Origin: Lophium mytilinum
Lineage: Eukaryota
Direction: 5' to 3'
Assembly (NCBI GenBank): GCA_010093605.1
Contig: MU004191.1
Location: 418,816 to 482,815, forward strand
Length of the DNA: 64,000 nucleotides
The position numbers and the translations under genes were made by a program. How positions within the stretch are numbered: position 1 is the stretch's first letter; each line of letters begins with the position of its first letter. The notes under the pieces are model-generated. The model was not told the DNA's origin. It saw only the letters and a list, made by a program, of their open reading frames with translations, and ran no database searches. Below are positions 8,858 to 57,630 of this stretch, piece after piece.

Positions 8858-9226
8858 GTTTGAATCACCTTGGAAAGTATATGAAGTAAATAGGGTTTTG
8901 GAGGAGGATGTAAGTTCGTTGATGGGAGAAGTTCCTTCTTTAAACACTGGAAATCCAATTAGGTTCACCCATTGTTACTTAACCTTAGTATCACTTTGCG
9001 ACTGGCATCGAGACCGGCCTAAGGGCTTTGGGAAGGTGATGCTCTTTCCGAAGAATGCAGTATGCTAATTGCTTCGCTGTGATTTATAGCACGGTCTATC
9101 GGCCCGTCCATTTCGGGGAACAGATCGGCAGCATTGAGCTGTTGGGGAAAGTTGGGTAATTTGATTTTGATGATAGTATCGTCCCAGGGACAGTTGCTTC
9201 GCTAATGCTGAAATCCGGGGAGATCG

Positions 9227-9390
9227 TGTTGAAATTGGTCACGTGACGTAGGTAGTACATAAGTAATATAATTAATTACATAGTAAGCTATCTATAGGTG
9301 GAGCTATAGCTATATAGCTAGAGCTATAGGGGGCTAGAAAGATTACTATCTAGCTATCTATTTTCTAGCACCTTATACTAAATTTTAATA
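9227..9390 (-). repeat. 3' LTR of the copia element (164 bp)
   Basis: Direct repeat of 17112-17275; starts TGTTGAAATTGG; followed inward by the polypurine tract. Confidence 0.93.
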
Positions 9391-9633
9391 CTCCCTCTTA
9401 ATTAAGAGTATAAGAAAATAGTAGCGCCTATATATAGCCTAAATTACAGCCTATTTTAAGCTCTAGCCTTAGTAAAACTCTTTAAAACCTTATTAGAAAA
9501 GAAGGGAAAAAGCGCTAGGTAGTATATAGAAAAGAATACTAGATAGTATAAAGAAAAGAGCGCTAATATAAGAAAGCTATAGACCTTTATAAAAAGATAT
9601 AAAGAGAAACCTATTTAGTAAGTTATTTAAAGA

Positions 9634-9720
9634 GAGATATTAAAGAGAAACCTTAAGAGATATTAAGAGAAACCTTAAGAGATATTAAAAGAAATCTTAA
9701 GAGATATTAAAAAGAACCTA
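9634..9720. repeat. ~22-bp tandem repeat (GAGATATTAAGAGAAACCTTAA, ~4 copies) inside the copia 3' region
   Basis: Directly visible repeated unit. Confidence 0.8.
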
Positions 9721-9739
9721 TTTAGTAAGCTAAATAAAA

Positions 9740-11082
9740 CTAAAGAGAGCTAATTCTTTCTAATCTTCTATAGTATATACTCTATTAGATATATTAGCTA
9801 TAGCTACTAGCTAGTAGAGAGTATTCTAGATATATTTTTCTTATCTAGAGAAGATCTAGCTACTACTATACTAGATAGTAGCTATTACTCTTTCTTTATT
9901 TACTATATTATAAAAGAAGCGCTAGGCTTTCTTTAGAACTTTTCTCTATCTCTTAATCTACCTATTATCTATATAGATAGGCTCTAGATTATAGTTATAA
10001 ATAACTATAACCTTACTAATATAGTTTATAGTAGTAATTACTACTATTCTCTAGTAGTACTATACTATATTCTTCTATTTACTAGCTCTTATACTAACCT
10101 AGAAGTCTATAGAAGTACTAAAGTACTTAAGCTAGATCTTCTTTTACTAGTAGTTACTTTTCTAGAAGCTTCTAAAGGTTACCCTTTCTTAGTAGATAGC
10201 TCTAGCCTCTCTAGAGTCTTTACCTAGGGCTATTACTTCTCTAATAGCTTTTTTAACCTAGAAAGTTTTAATAATTCTATTCTTAAAGAAGATAATATTA
10301 GAAAAAATAAAAGAAAAGCTATATTTTACTTTAATATATTATAGAAACTCTATAAATTCTATAGAAGATAGCTAAGAAGTACTAGAAATATCTTTAAGTA
10401 GAATAGAGTAGATTTTATCTACCTAGATAATATTATTAGAAGAGGCTCTAATAAGAACCTAAGTAAGTAAATTATTAAAGGCTTATCTTTATAGGCTTCT
10501 ATACCTACTAGCTAGCTCTAGCCTAGGTAATTTAAACTAAGATTTATATAGTTAAAGAATAATATTTAAAAGTAAATTACTTAGTCTAGTATTAGTAGAA
10601 TCTTCTATAATACTAGAATCTAAATCTTTAGAGTCTAGAATTTTAGAAACTATAATTCTTTTAGTACTATAGATAATACTAGTAGAGTTATAGATACTTA
10701 AAGAGAGTAAGTTTATTAGATTCTAGAAAGTAACTAAGTTTAAGAGTAAATAGCTTAGTTTAATATTAGTAGAATTAAATAAGATTTTATTAGTATATAT
10801 ATTAGAGTTAGTAGTATTAATATTAAAAGGAATTTTAGCGCTAGTAATACTAGAGCTAGAGTTATAGGTTATTAAAGGTAGTAATATTTTAGAGTTAGTA
10901 TACTTTATCTATTTTAGGTATAGATTTCTTACCTTCTCTTTACTATACTACTTTAAAATTAGGCGGCCTAAATATTTATAATTAGGGCTTTTAGAATTAA
11001 GAGAAATTTTAGTTCTAGTATACTTAGAAATAAAGTTATAGAGCTTTAAAGAGAATAAGTTTACTTAAAAAAAAGAGAATAT
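9740..11082 (-). pseudogene. Putative RIP-destroyed extra ORF of the copia element, downstream of pol
   Basis: Strong 3-base periodicity (T|A at codon boundaries) in one register over ~1.35 kb. Stops in that frame are TAA/TAG that revert to Q/W/R codons. Possible AAA-ATA (ATG) start at 11082. Confidence 0.5.
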
Positions 11083-11330
11083 TTTAGTAGAAAATAGAGG
11101 TTCTAGCTAAGAGTCTAGTAAATTTAGGCTATATAATAGCCTTCTATAGCGCCTAGGGCAGCCTATTAATATAGGTAGCGGCCTAGGGAGCGGCTAGTAA
11201 TAACAGTGGGTGGCCGGTAGAAAGGTAGCTAGCCCGGCGGCTAGCTAGCGGCTAGCTAGCTAGTAGGCTAGCAAGGCTTAGAGGCGGCTAGAGAGGTTAG
11301 CAAGGCTGGCGAGGCTGGCTAGGCTGGCAG

Positions 11331-11440
11331 GCGGCTGGTACGTAGAGGCAGGCGGGCGGCTAGTACATAGAGGCAGGCGGGCGGCTAGTACGTAGAGGCA
11401 GGTGGGCGGCTAGTACATAGAGGCAGGTAGGCGGCTAGTA
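11331..11440. repeat. 25-bp GC-rich tandem repeat (GCGGCTAGTACRTAGAGGCAGGYGG, ~4.4 copies) just downstream of copia pol
   Basis: Units start at 11331, 11356, 11381, 11406 and 11431. Confidence 0.9.
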
Positions 11441-14400
11441 GTAAGGGGCAGGTAGATAGCTAGATTATATAATCTATCTTATAATATACCTAGCTAGTAG
11501 CTTTTTATAGCCTAAGTATAGTTCTAAAAGCCTTAAATATAATTTTAGATAGCGCCTTAGTAAGTCTATTAGCTATCTACTTAGTAGTTAGAATAAACTA
11601 TAGATTAACTAAGCTATCTAATTACTTTTCTCTTATAAAGTAATACTAGATATTAATATACTTAGTTCTAGTATAGAATTAAAAGTTCTTTACTAGTATA
11701 ATAGCTCTCTAGTTATTACTAAAGATAACTATAGCTTTAAATTCTTTACTATTCTCTATAAGCTTCTTAAGTAGTTATTATAGCTAGATAGCTTTTTTAG
11801 TTACCTATATCTTCTTTATATATTTAGCTTTATATAAAAAGAGTATAATAGTAGATTACTATTTTAATAACTAGCTTAAGGCGCTGCTACTAATATTAAA
11901 TATATAGCCTACTATAGAGCGCTAGGTTTCTATATTACTAGCCTAGTTAGTATTAGTATAGCCTTATAGAGGCTTAAGGTATTCTTAGTATACTAGCTTA
12001 TAGTTAATAGTACTCTTTAGATACCTTATAATATACTTAATAGCTATAGTATAGGCTAGAGCTAGATTTACTATATACTAGCTATAGATAGATACTATAA
12101 AGATAATATCTAGGCGCGTTTTAAGTATAGTATATATAAGTAACCTAATTATACTAGTATACTATTTTCTATTAGCTTTACTAGCTTAGTAGCTATCTTT
12201 ATAGGCTTTAAACTTCTCTATCTATATTAAAGTAGTATTTAGCTTTAAATTATATAGCCTAAATTACTCTAGTACTTCTTAAAGGTATACCTTTTAATTT
12301 AGAATAAAAGTATACTACTACTAGTCTCTTCTTACTTTTATTTCTAGGTAGAAGTAGTATAGGCCTAGGTTAGTTATCTTAAAGTATTTATTAAGCTTAG
12401 CTTTTAGCTAGGTAATCTCTATACTTAAAGGGCTAGTAATTAAAAGGTTATTAATATATATAGTAATATATATATTTTCTTTAGTAAAGATTCTATACTT
12501 AGAGTCTAAGGGGTAAAAGTCTAGCATTTTAAGAAAGCTAGATAGTATTTAGTACTAGATCTAAGGTAATTACTTTAGCCTATATAAGGCCTTTTTAAGT
12601 TAGTAGACCTACTTTCTAGTCTCTAGACCTTCTAGTTAAATAATATAGATTTCCTTATTAATATTACTATATAGAAAAGCTATTTTAATATTTATTTACT
12701 TAATTTCTAGGTTTAAAGTAGCTACTATTATAAAGAGCGCCTTATAGCTTATAGGTTTTACTATAGAAATAAATATCTTATTATAGTTAACTCTCTCTTT
12801 CTAGTAAAAACCTTAAACTACCTATTAGGCTTTATAGTAGAGGATTTTACTACTAGTACTACATTTAATTTTATATATTTACTTACTACCTAGTACCTTT
12901 TTATATATAGGTTAGCTTACTAGACTCTATATTTTATTACTTTCTAGTAAGTCTATTTCTACTTTTATAGCCTTATACTACTATTTTTAGACTTATATAT
13001 CTTAATAAGCTTTTTAGTAGCTATAAGATTCTATTAGTACTACTATACTCTATAAGGCAGTTTTAAGTAGGCTAAATAGTAGGCTATACTATAGTATAGA
13101 GATATTATAGTATATACCTTTATTAGCCTATTTAGATACTTAAAGTACTAGTATATAGTATTTAAAGGCTTCTAAATCTACTAGGTAGATATTTTTATTA
13201 TCTTTATCTTTATCTAGTATAAAGGTTTCTAGAAAGGCTTCTCTATTAAAGTCTATATCTATAGGTAGTATACTAGGCTTATTATTCTATAGTTTAATAC
13301 TTAGTAATAGTAGTATTTCTACTAGTAGTTCTAGGCGCCTTCTACACGCTATAGGCTCTAAGTCTAAGAAAGAATTATTATTCTTATTATTACTATCTCC
13401 TCTACTTCTAGGGCTAGAAGCTTTCTTAGAAGCTAATATGCGGGGTCTCTTTACTAGCCTATTTTCTTTAGCTAGTAGAGTAGCACCTATTATATTTAGA
13501 ACTATTTTAAAGTTATTAAAAGTTTTCTTTATATAGGGCCTATCTTCTAGAAATACTATATTACTAGACTAAATTAAAATACCTTAGGGGTTAATAAGAA
13601 GGTAAATATAAGCTCTCTTATATCTAACTAGCTAGTAGATTTCTACCTAGTTATCTAGAAACTTTTTACGGCGCTTTAGTAGTACTAGTATATAGTACTT
13701 ATACTCTAATATATAGAAATAGCTAATATTTAGCTTATCTTCTATCTATTTCTTATAGAAGGTTATACTAATAATAGTACTTAGAGACTAGTTATAAATC
13801 TTAATAATAGATATAAGAATATATAGCTAGTACTTCTATTCTAGATTACTAAACTATATTATAGAGTTAAGTTTATTTATAAAAATATTATTTAGAACCT
13901 TAGCCTTACTATTTTACTAGTACTAATTACGCCTAGTAGGCTTAATAATAATTCTATAATTTATATAATATTAGTAGAAGCTACTATTCTAGTTTTCTTC
14001 TAACTAGTTAAGTCTAATCTATTATACGCGGCGTTTTATAGTTTTATACCTTTCTAGGAAATTATAGAAGGCTTTAAAGAAGTCTAATTTCTTAATAATA
14101 GAATATACTTCTATAATCTATATAAAATTATTAAGAAAGGTTATCTAATACTTTTCCTTATAGTATTCTAGGTATAGAAATAATCTATAGATATCTATAT
14201 AGATTAGCTCTAAAGGGGCCTTACTTTTTTAAATTAGGTAATTATAAGGCCCTCTCTTTATTCTTTTAAGAACATAGTCCTTATATAGGCACCCTAGGGG
14301 GTTCTTATCTATTCTAATAGTTATCTTAGATAGCTTTTTAAGGCTATCTTTATCTAGATAGGCTATCTACTTATACTAAATAATAAGATTAGGGTTAAAG

Positions 14401-17111
14401 AGTATAAAGGCGGTAAGAGTAAAAGTAGATAGCTTCTAGTATTAAATATTAAAAATATAGAGACTATACTAGTAGAGAAAGTTAAAAGTAGTACCTATAG
14501 TAGTAAGAGTACTACTATTTAGGCTAAAATTCTATAAAGCTTACTTATCTATTAGCTTAGAGATAGAAATTAAATTAGCGCCTATATTAGAGTAGAAGAG
14601 TATATTAGTAAGCTAAAGGCTTACTTCTACTCTATTAATATTATAGCGGAGGTTTAAGGTACTAGTACTTCTAGAGTATACCTAGAATTTTTTAATTCTA
14701 CTAATAGATAGCCTACTATACTTCTAGAGCTTTATAAAGTTACTCTATTATATAGAGTAGATCTAGCTATATCTAGTATTAGTAATATATATCTCTATAA
14801 GAAAGGTATCTACTATACTAGTAGTAATAGCTATTAGGCCTATATAGTAGATTAGTAAAGATTATATTAAATATATAAGAAGTATAGTACTACTACTTTC
14901 TTTAGTAGTAGTATTATCTTTCTCTTTTCTACTCTTTTTCTATTTCTTCTTAGATAGCCTACTACCCCTTTTTTCTTCTACCTTTCTCTTTCTATTCTAT
15001 TTCTTTTTAAATTCCTTCTTAAGCTCTAGATAGAGCTTCTAGTATATAGTAGCTATATAGTAAGTCTTATTATAGTAGCTATAGAGGTTAACCTAAATTA
15101 TTATTTTATTAGAGCTAGCTTTTAGAAAGGTAAAGCCTTTCTTTAATACTAAATTATTTAGATAAGTCTACTTTTATTTCTCTACTATCTTATAAACTTT
15201 AGTAAAATTAACAGCCTTCTTAACTATAGTGCTAGGGCTATCTTCTATATTTTTATTTACTAGCTTAGTAGTTACTATAATAGAGTGCTTAGTATTATAG
15301 ACTTCTACTTATAAGGCCTAGTTAGGCTCTAAACCTCTTAGATACTTATTAATAAAGAAAGGTTTAGAAACCTTTCTATTATTACTAAATAATATAAGGT
15401 TTTTATAGGCTTTATATATCTAGTTAGTATATTTAGTAATATTATTAAACTTAGCTAAGCTTAACTCCTTATACTCTCTTTTAAACTTATTAAAAATAGT
15501 AGCTCTAGTTAGTTAAAATTTCTTCTAGAGAGCTATTATTATTTAGTTTACTATCTTATAATTCTTAATAGTATTCTTAGAGTTCTATCTAAGCTAGTTA
15601 GTAATAATACTATATACCTACTTATTTTTATCTACCTAGTTATTTTACTAGCGTTGCTTTTTAATAGCGTTTAAGTCTATTATTTTACTATTAATAGGCG
15701 CGGCCTTTTAATAAGTAAGGGGCTCTTTAAGCCTACTTCTTATAATATAGTTTTAGATTTCCGCGTTCTACTAAATCTAGTTAAAGAATAACTTAAGGCA
15801 TTATATGCGCTTAAGGCTGCTAGCGCCTTTCTTTTCTATTCTAGATATTCTTAATAGAAGTCTTAGAATAGTAATAGAGAGACTCTTTAGAGCTATAGTA
15901 GAGATAAAGGCGGAGGCGGAGGTAAAGGTAACTAGTATATTAGTAATAATAGTAATACTATATATAATAGAGATAATACTATATAAAATAAAAGGTTAGA
16001 AAAGGATAATAATAAGAATAAGCTATCTAATAAGATTAATAGCGGAGGTAGTTAATAATATAGATAAGTTTTAGAAAGGGAATTAGAATTAGAATTAGAA
16101 GAGGTAAGATAAGCCTATTTTTAAAGCTGTTAATAGGGTTTTAGAAACTTAGATAGAGAAATAGATATAGTAGCTCTTTTTTACTTAAGAGGCTTATAGT
16201 ATTATTAAAAAGTAATAAAACTCTTATTAGTCTTTAAGATATTAGTATCTATATAGTATCTAGTAGAAGAATTTAAATAGAGAGAGCCTAGGGGAGTATT
16301 AACTTTTAAACTAAAGAGCTTAAAGTTACTAGCTTTTAATAGTTCTAAGTTCTTAGTAGTATAGCTAGATATTACTATTAGTAATAGTTTATTAAGAGGC
16401 TTAAAGAAAGTGTCTTAGGGTAGTTCTATAAAGAGTAAAAGTAAGCCTAAATTTTTAAAGTCTTAAATAAGATAAGAAAAATAGTAAAGATTAAAAAAGT
16501 ATAGAAGATAAGCTAGTTAAAGGGGTCTTAGTTAAAGAAACTAAAGTAATAGTAATAATAGAGGAGAAGAAAATATAGTAGTAGGGCTAGTATACTTATC
16601 TACTCTCTAAATTAGCCTTCTAAATTAAAAGGGGCTAGGTAAGTAGATAGCTAGTTTAGAAGTCTATATTATAAGAGGTTAATAAAAAGAAGAAGGTTAG
16701 TATTTTAATAAGGTTAGATAAGTATAAGGTTAGGCTAGTAGCTAGTATACTAAAAGAGGCGCTAGCTATATAAATAATACCTAGCCTTTTCTAGCTCTAT
16801 TAGCTAGCCTCTTAGCTAGCCTCTACTATAGTAGTATTTAGCCTCTAAGGCCTACTATCTACCTACCCCTTTTATTTCTAGCTTCTAATTTTAGGCTTTA
16901 AAAATAGGGCTAGAGGTAACTAGACCTCTCTAGGCTAGCTACTAGGCGCTAATAGTAATAGTATTAGTATAAACTAATAGTAGGCTATATAGTAGAAGTA
17001 GCTATAAGGCTATTAATAGTGCCCTTCTATTAAAATTTTATATTAGAAGTAGAAGCTTTTTAGCTAGATTAAAGGTAACTTAGCTCTAGTTATACTTCTA
17101 GGCTTATAATC

Positions 17112-17275
17112 TATTAAAATTAGTTATATAATATAGGTAGTATATAAGTAATATAATTAATTATATAGTAAGCTATCTATAGGTGGAGCTATAGCTATAT
17201 AGCTAGAGCTATAGGGGGCTGGAAAGATCGCTACCTAGCTACCTATTTCCTAGTACCTTGTACCGAATTTTGATA
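17112..17275 (-). repeat. 5' LTR of the copia element (164 bp)
   Basis: Direct repeat of 9227-9390 differing by transitions; flanked inward by the PBS-like sequence. Confidence 0.93.
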
Positions 17276-17859
17276 GATTGGTGCAGGTATTGAAGCTGCT
17301 ATCCGACAACTAAGGGTCTTGGGAGTTGATTCCCGCCATCTGATTGACTGGAAACAGTCACCCATTACTTGCCTTAATTCACAGCGATGTGTCTTTTAGA
17401 GGAATACGAGACTGTACAAATGCTGTAACAAGGAAAAGAAAAGTCCGCACCGCCAGGAACGCGGACCCGTACCTGTCTCGGGGCCAGATCGAAATAGAAA
17501 CATAACCAGCAGTTAATAAGGTAGCGTGCCCAAGAACCGGTATATCAGCCAAGCGACCACCGTAAAACATACTATGGAATATAGTGATGATGTTCGAGAT
17601 CGCGATAGAAGCGACGAGGGTTGATTGAGCAGCAGGGGCCTGAATGGACCGACGAAACGAGGCAATCAACCTTGACTTAGCCACTTGCCTTGATGCAGCA
17701 GGTGAAGGCGGTCGACTCTCTGCCCTTTCCCATCGTATTGATTTCCTGAACGTCCAGATGTCCAGATGATATTCGAAAGCCTAGAACAAGCCGGTCGAAG
17801 CTTGAGCACATGGCAGAATCTAAGAGCAATGAATCGAGCAGCTCTCGATTCATTTAGAA

Positions 17860-18450
17860 CAACACCTAATTGTAGTATTGTAGCAAGCAGTCAGCGGGGT
17901 AAATGTTTTTAAAGCAGTAATAGGTTTTCGGTCCATGTTCTTGGAATTAGACTGAGAGCGCAGGCGAAAGGCACACGTAGGGTCCATTCTATGGGTATAC
18001 ATGGTAGATTCTAGACCGAGAGCGTAGTGCATATAAAATGTAGACTTCGGGGACTGATGCAGGATTTTAACACAAGTTTAAGGATTTAGGCCGAAAGCGT
18101 AGGTAGAAAGGATGCGTGTAGGGCTCACGCTGCGGGTATAAGTGGTAGATCCTAGACTGGCAGCGTGGCACACATAGCGGGTAGATATATCCCTAGAATT
18201 AGGTAGGCTTTTGGTTTGAGTACAAAGAATCAGACCCAAAGCGTATGTAAAAGACACATGTAGGGTTCACGCTATGGGAGAATCATTACCGAGAGCGTGG
18301 AGTAGACGAAGTGCAATTACCTAGGCCGAGGGTAGGATGTCGGCTTTAGTTCGAGGAACTAAACCGAAAGTGCAGGTAAAAGAGGTACACATCGGGTGTA
18401 TACACAGGGTATAAATAGTAGATGTTAGACCGAGATTGTGAAGTCGAAGA
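17860..18450 (+). repeat. Degenerate tandem array, ~141-bp period, ~4 copies
   Basis: Core GTAGGG(T/C)(C/T)CA...GGGTATA..TGGTAGAT recurs at 17977, 18118, 18260 and ~18391. Confidence 0.8.
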
Positions 18451-57159: not shown

Positions 57160-57630
57160 CTGCGCTCTCAGATCTACCATTTATACCCATAGCGTGGACC
57201 CTACATGTACCTTTCCTGGCTACACTTTCGGCCCAATTCCCAGAATTTAGACCAAATGCCTACCCACTTCCAGGATACATCTGTCCGCTAGGTATACCAC
57301 GCTCTCGGACGAAAATCTACCACTTATAGCCATAGTGTGGCCCCAAAGTGAGCCTTTCCTGTCTGAGCTTTCGGTCTAGTTTCTCGAACTTGAGCCGAAA
57401 ACTTGGCTTAGTTGTAGGTATCTATAGTCTGTGTGGTATTCCATACTCTCGGTTTAAGAACTATCACTTATACCCTTAGCGTGGACCCTACGCGTGCCTT
57501 TTCTGTCTACGCTTCCGGCCTAATTTCTAGAGATTAAAACTGAATGCCTGCCTCCCCTTATGTATATACCCTTTGTCTATTCGGCGCTCTCGGCCTAAAA
57601 ACCACTCATTGTAAAAAGTGTGGACCCAAA
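57160..57630 (-). repeat. Degenerate tandem array, ~143-bp period; reverse complement of the array at 17860-18450
   Basis: TTATA(C/G)CC(A/T)TAG(C/T)GTGG(A/C)CCC at 57181, 57324 and 57468, with a partial copy at ~57610. Confidence 0.8.

Follow-up and report, generated by a model that had tools for sequence, protein, structure and literature searches.

A sense-strand third-gene relic between pol and the 3′ LTR of a RIP-mutated Ty1/copia retrotransposon of Lophium mytilinum

The window analysed here, a stretch of 64,000 nucleotides from Lophium mytilinum to which all positions refer, contains an AT-rich block at 9.2-17.3 kb (GC 0.25-0.33, compared with about 0.5 in the surrounding sequence) that corresponds to a single element. 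It is a Ty1/copia LTR retrotransposon of 8.05 kb, lying on the minus strand at 9227-17275 and saturated with RIP mutations (Table 1). The hallmarks of Ty1/copia are present, namely two LTRs, a primer site, a polypurine tract and a 5-bp target duplication, and the region upstream of the reverse transcriptase (RT) matches rve-bearing copia polyproteins, which places the integrase before the RT as in Ty1/copia. RIP has broken gag-pol with about 112 stops in its true frame. Pfam nonetheless matched RVT_2 at residues 1255-1487 of the gag-pol translation P0004 (E 6.3e-28), and copia polyproteins were found at 22-31% identity in the protein search; no named fungal relative appeared among the approximately 8000 candidates scored in the Pol searches. 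Elsewhere in the window, two arrays of degenerate repeats with a spacing of about 140 nt (17966-18313 and 57163-57536; D4, D7, I1-I3) resemble one another in inverted orientation and lie 39 kb apart.

Table 1. Features of the copia element, in window coordinates, ordered from its 5′ to its 3′ end
Feature	Position	Strand	Remark
5′ target-site duplication CAATC	17276..17280	-	3′ copy differs by one transition
5′ LTR, 164 bp	17112..17275	-	direct repeat D2, 87% over 162 nt
Primer-binding site, internal (half-molecule) initiator tRNA-Met type	17098..17111	-	RIP-altered in window copy
Probable upstream (5′) additional frame	15900..16650, limits approximate	-	frame differs from gag-pol
gag-pol, one frame: gag, protease, integrase, RT, RNase H	11490..15880, start approximate	-	
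Spacer, GC-rich, length-variable	11149..11489	-	25-mer (4.8 copies) and 9-mer arrays
Third-gene relic, about 450 codons, sense	9740..11082	-	
3′ non-coding tail, length-variable among copies	9400..9739	-	22-mer array 9633-9719
Polypurine tract AAGAGGGAG	9391..9399	-	
3′ LTR, 164 bp, CA terminus	9227..9390	-	direct repeat with 5′ LTR
3′ target-site duplication CGATC	9222..9226	-	

The element is a RIP-mutated repeat in which RIP is nearly complete. Over 9391-11100 the plus strand holds no TG and a single CA dinucleotide, and the (CA+TG)/(AC+GT) and TpA/ApT ratios are 0.01 and 1.93, against 1.21 and 0.74 in the flanking genes. Any pair of copies differs by 85-89 transitions versus 7-15 transversions.

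A DNA search of the genome returned four matches: the window itself, full-length sister copies on contigs C5 and C17 (88% and 85% identical to the window copy) and one match of 56 nt. Both sisters are flanked by perfect 5-bp target duplications of their own, and the three copies are therefore independent insertions. The segment is colinear and in the same place in 3/3 full-length copies, and the repeat analysis of the window found no termini belonging to it; it is therefore not a nested element, the outcome that the first-pass annotation had named as one refutation of a third gene. All three copies are dead, their frames closed by stops, and 30/31 stop positions of the extra frame are common to them, compared with 91/125 in gag-pol. 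Since all frames of the extra region share their stops more often, this is no proof of early gene loss; equally, with 30/31 stops in common, a frame closed across the copies is no argument against a former gene. The other proposed refutation, a de-RIPped consensus without a long ORF, would mislead with these three copies.

Several further observations concern the copies. In the C17 copy (L016, G000:C17:1429900-1437840), transversions reach 48 per 300 nt in gag, versus 0-5 in RT, RNase H and the extra gene. In gag-pol the window copy is nearer to C5, but its extra gene and LTRs are nearer to those of C17, a mosaic affinity that suggests recombination between subfamilies. LTR-like matches at G000:C17:452139-452312, C19:468616-468706 and C9:1219453-1219535 are probably solo LTRs or fragments of the same element family, and contigs from two runs of one sample hold variants resembling those of the sister copies.

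Pol ends at 11505-11490 and the 3′ LTR starts at 9390, which bears out the unexplained gap of about 2.1 kb noticed beforehand (2103 nt). Translation likewise reproduced the four stops in the first 175 codons of the minus frame from 11082; over 11148-9700 the same frame has 34 stops in 483 codons. These are all TAA or TAG as had been stated, yet the absence of TGA, taken as a sign of RIP acting on codons, is uninformative because RIP removed the TG dinucleotide altogether. The proposed start holds in so far as an ATA at 11082-11080 is identical in the three copies, the ATG itself being inferred and seen in none; the 3′ end of the frame lies somewhere between about 9760 and the 22-mer array starting at 9719. 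Over 453 codons, the three frames of the element strand contain 31/86/52 stops and those of the opposite strand 38/36/89, a six-frame pattern that mirrors the one of gag-pol in matching register (112/266/182 and 130/127/246), and the codon-boundary periodicity described as far as about 9740 is thus above chance. Only one indel, of 18 nt, separates the copies between 11099 and 9740 (1360 columns); the flanking spacer and tail have many non-triplet indels. In the proximal half of the frame, degenerate 52-nt repeats (family D5, at 11007, 10833, 10785 and 10659) are spaced by 174, 48 and 126 nt, all multiples of 3.

Since RIP makes transitions only, transversions among the copies record evolution before RIP and were used as a test of frame and strand. 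Fourteen of 18 fall on third codon positions (three copies; binomial p 1.4e-4). Synonymy was counted for transversions in gap-free context, which gives 19 sites from three copies with RIP-altered codons: 10/19 are synonymous in the sense frame, 6/19 in the antisense frame sharing its third positions, and 0/19 in the in-register antisense frame and in each of the three others. For comparison, 52/170 are synonymous in the true frame of gag-pol. The extra gene accumulated 1-5 transversions per 300 nt, a pace comparable to 0-5 in RT/RNase H and set against up to 48 in gag. A codon model, for which 2699 RIPed pol codons from other families served as the training set, put the sense frame first (+3.6), as it did the true frames of the RT, integrase and gag controls. 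The in-register antisense frame scored -8.8 and the rest -32 to -66, among them the antisense frame sharing third positions at -34.8; a mononucleotide shuffle restores CpA/TpG, is invalid as a control for this model and was discarded. With 10/19 synonymous transversions in the sense frame and 0/19 in the antisense, the segment is therefore the remnant of a sense-strand gene of about 450 codons that was under purifying selection before RIP. Its presence in all full-length copies, its strand and its selection uphold the earlier proposal that the ancestral element carried a third gene, and the in-register antisense frame, which could not be excluded by eye, is now excluded.

The extra frame begins about 410 nt behind pol, in a different frame and across the GC-rich tandem spacer. 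Among the copies the spacer varies by indels of 2, 50/66, 12, 11, 12/24, 10 and 1 nt; this variation in non-triplet amounts rules out read-through or a fixed-frameshift extension of Pol. We infer a separate message for the third gene, by way of an internal promoter, for which the spacer would be the candidate region, or of splicing.

A second sense frame is probably present upstream of gag. In the 5′ leader from 16207 to 15911, indels among the copies are all multiples of 3 (5/5), and 6/12 transversions are synonymous in the proposed sense frame against at most 2/12 in any of the other five, so that an antisense gene was dropped as a candidate here. Pfam found no match to the leader frame. In another copia family of this genome, family B, the leader has indels of 15, 3, 6 and 3 nt, and 8/9 of its transversions lie on one phase.

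By eye, the N-terminal 180 or so codons of the third gene are of low complexity, S/T/N-rich, with degenerate in-frame repeats, and the C-terminal 250 or so are more charged. Neither a signal peptide nor a membrane anchor stands out by eye in this translation, whose composition RIP distorts. Homologue searches used the translation with X at stops. Neither Pfam (one match at E 0.81 was disregarded) nor PDB sequences gave a match, profile A1 found none among 1.84 billion representatives at E 0.001, a word-based search with residues 200-476 retained 0 of 3427 candidates at E 1, and in viral contigs 0 of 374 pattern matches were confirmed. The remark that no domain is recognisable agrees with these results. 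Within its own genome, the protein search led back to the three element copies alone (3 matches from 4 candidates). RIP reduces the sensitivity of such searches; the RIPed Pol nonetheless finds relatives of 28-30% identity at E 1e-64. The AlphaFold2 model of the extra protein (pLDDT 26.3, pTM 0.17) is unusable.

The slot behind pol is also occupied in related elements. We examined 13 LTR-bounded copia elements of this genome: ten, in four families, have a gap of 1.7-2.7 kb and three (L048, L053, L054), with the same primer site, ordinary gaps of 167-265 nt; the ten were chosen by RT similarity to the window element, and the 10:3 ratio is no census. The long-gap families (L035-L037, L038-L040, L043-L044 and L041) are RIPed, with codon-like periodicity in the slot, for which the codon model prefers a sense frame in families C, D and E and an antisense one in B. 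In C and E the slot frame ends, by eye, in a charged, coiled-coil-like stretch. Pol identity to the window element is 40-49% in the long-slot families versus 31-39% in the short-gap elements, and this tracking of long slots with Pol similarity suggests a clade. The best slot frames of C, D and E did not align with the third gene (hhalign probability 0.05-0.2%), a dissimilarity that may stem from RIP damage on both sides.

The primer site, GGTTAT(G/A)AGCCCGG, reads GGTTATAAGCCCGG in the sister copies, and the unmutated form occurs at 4/24 sites in the genome. At 14/14 positions this form is the reverse complement of the anticodon arm, with exons joined, of a tRNA-iMet-like gene (L180:1479-1612, G000:C1). 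That gene was recognised by eye and not called by ARAGORN; as read, one intron follows its anticodon and a second insertion precedes the T arm. Drosophila copia and Ty5 likewise use an internal part of tRNA-iMet as primer. The GalEa clade has a hairpin site, CTGATCAGT/CTAATTAGT, in place of a primer site, and the FunCo1 clade a tRNA-Lys primer site, ATTAAGAGTCT, according to the passages on these clades in PMC5445492. Measured against those definitions, the sequence following the LTR in our family is GGTTATAAGCCCGG rather than the GalEa hairpin, and it lacks the FunCo1 site. An undescribed copia lineage, as suggested in the first-pass annotation, is therefore plausible, because the primer site is of neither type. 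The same primer site is found in an un-RIPed miniature LTR element with identical 114-bp repeats about 530 nt apart (L045:355-997, G000:C1), and three further un-RIPed sites (L049, L050, L056) lie in GC-normal DNA. Scanning metagenome contigs for the site gave at least 120 loci. Among those listed, none matched the extra frame (loci with less than 1.5 kb after the site were skipped), and 14 had a pol end and a 3′ LTR, with a gap of at most about 450 nt in 14/14; these are distant elements. Viral contigs, scanned in the same way, yielded 0 matches.

We consider it reasonably probable that the segment is a RIP-killed relic of an accessory gene which the copia element itself carried and needed. 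The copies show that the gene belonged to the element, was coded on the gag-pol strand and stayed under purifying selection while the source elements diverged. It would have had a message of its own, started in the GC-rich spacer or produced by splicing the LTR transcript. The product would have been soluble and about 450 residues long, its N-terminal part of low complexity and its C-terminal domain charged. If so, the protein may have acted on host silencing or on the RNA or DNA of the element, in a slot filled differently by related families; by analogy, we rate this at somewhat under even chances. Anti-silencing genes of plant Vandal transposons are discussed together with additional ORFs (aORFs) of plant elements in parts of PMC11728184. 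A wider view, possible though on the whole unlikely, is an undescribed clade of ascomycete copia elements primed by a half initiator tRNA and laid out as three genes (5′ accessory, gag-pol, 3′ accessory), whose 3′ slot would hold exchangeable orphan genes under purifying selection, different from one family to the next, as for counter-defence; quelling, meiotic silencing or RIP would then be the targets.

Among the alternatives, a recently captured host gene travelling as passive cargo, one of the options raised beforehand, would suit the unrelated slots of the neighbouring families and the varied third ORFs that LTR elements capture (described in portions of PMC5408684). We nevertheless regard it as decidedly unlikely: the synonymous excess among element copies implies selection inside the element, with which cargo fits poorly, the own-genome protein search gave nothing but the element copies, and no relative appeared among the 1.84 billion representatives. 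Quite improbable is an env-like membrane protein serving the passage of particles between cells. Position and strand match the ENV-like gene of plant Sireviruses, those genes are themselves little conserved in sequence (both as given in sections of PMC3414828), and an uncharged run of about 30 residues was seen by eye at P0002 131-162. However, RIP itself lends translations a hydrophobic look, the run holds several N, S and T and a stop, plus a proline in the C5 copy, and with the Pfam, PDB and homologue searches empty and the structure model unusable, nothing beyond position speaks for this earlier suggestion. A gene on the opposite strand, at least in the distal half, similar to brtn of Botrytis Boty, which reportedly lies antisense, is very improbable. 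For 9740-10399 the in-register plus frame has 6-8 stops per copy versus 21 in the sense frame, and in the distal half the codon model, whose absolute score is low, is tied (sense +4.6, antisense +5.0); yet no transversion is synonymous in that frame, and 8/10 in the distal half lie on sense third positions, which would be first positions of the antisense codons. A further rival holds that the segment is a nested element in its own right, or a repeat-derived non-coding spacer to which RIP has lent a spurious periodicity. It draws on the degenerate repeats of the proximal half and on the lack of a homologue, and is scarcely credible given the same place in 3/3 copies, the absence of own termini, a sole other genome match of 56 nt, and the inability of RIP to put transversions on third positions.

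The accessory gene of the element thus remains our preferred reading. Descriptions of fungal copia elements give gag-pol alone; the present case suggests that their accessory genes may have escaped notice, RIP having made them invisible to ORF finders. Should they counter host silencing, they would be transposon-encoded antagonists of fungal genome defence. The limit of the finding is that every copy is dead and that the protein is known only as a RIP-distorted translation without a match. Transversions among RIPed copies nonetheless recover frame, strand and selection without reconstruction of the sequence.

Compared with known systems, the element resembles the GalEa and FunCo1 copia elements of filamentous ascomycetes in having RVT_2 within one gag-pol frame, TG...CA ends, a 5-bp target duplication and short LTRs (164 bp here, 138-311 bp in GalEa). 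It differs in its size of 8.05 kb versus 5.4-7.0 kb for fungal GalEa and in carrying an extra frame behind gag-pol and a probable one before it, whereas GalEa elements consist of a single large ORF (as far as the excerpts of PMC5445492 extend). Sireviruses, the only Copia genus described as often having an ENV-like gene, likewise have a third gene in sense orientation between pol and 3′ LTR, and their ENV-like genes have little sequence in common beyond transmembrane and coiled-coil parts (sections of PMC3414828). Unlike them, our element has a RIP-active fungal host, short LTRs and, by eye, one polypurine tract before the LTR rather than multiple ones, and stop-codon read-through is excluded by its variable spacer. 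As expected of a functional aORF, the third gene is common to independent copies (3/3) and was under purifying selection (10/19 synonymous). We take Athila, Tat, Tekay, Retand and Grande to be plant lineages of the Gypsy type. These are the aORF examples in the text drawn on from PMC11728184, where aORFs are orphan genes placed ahead of gag-pol, behind it or, in some cases, on either side; flanking orphan genes and biased composition are shared with our element, which is a fungal copia. In fungi, brtn is an additional ORF of BcGypsy1/Boty of Botrytis cinerea, again in an LTR retrotransposon, yet Gypsy and not copia (extracts of PMC8365987). The LTR elements of bdelloid rotifers have an ORF3 slot holding unrelated genes in different families, but with known domains (env, GDSL esterase, DEDDy nuclease), whereas none is recognisable here (portions of PMC5408684). 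Surveys of Cochliobolus and Verticillium, in the parts consulted, list copia elements that measure about 5.9-6.1 kb and contain gag-pol alone, and the consulted portion of a survey of 59 fungal genomes mentions no third gene for copia (PMC3248453). In the literature covered, mainly open-access and without the supplement tables of PMC5445492, which may include 8-kb families, no account of a third gene in fungal copia came up; the present analysis adds the strand, frame and selection signal of such a gene.
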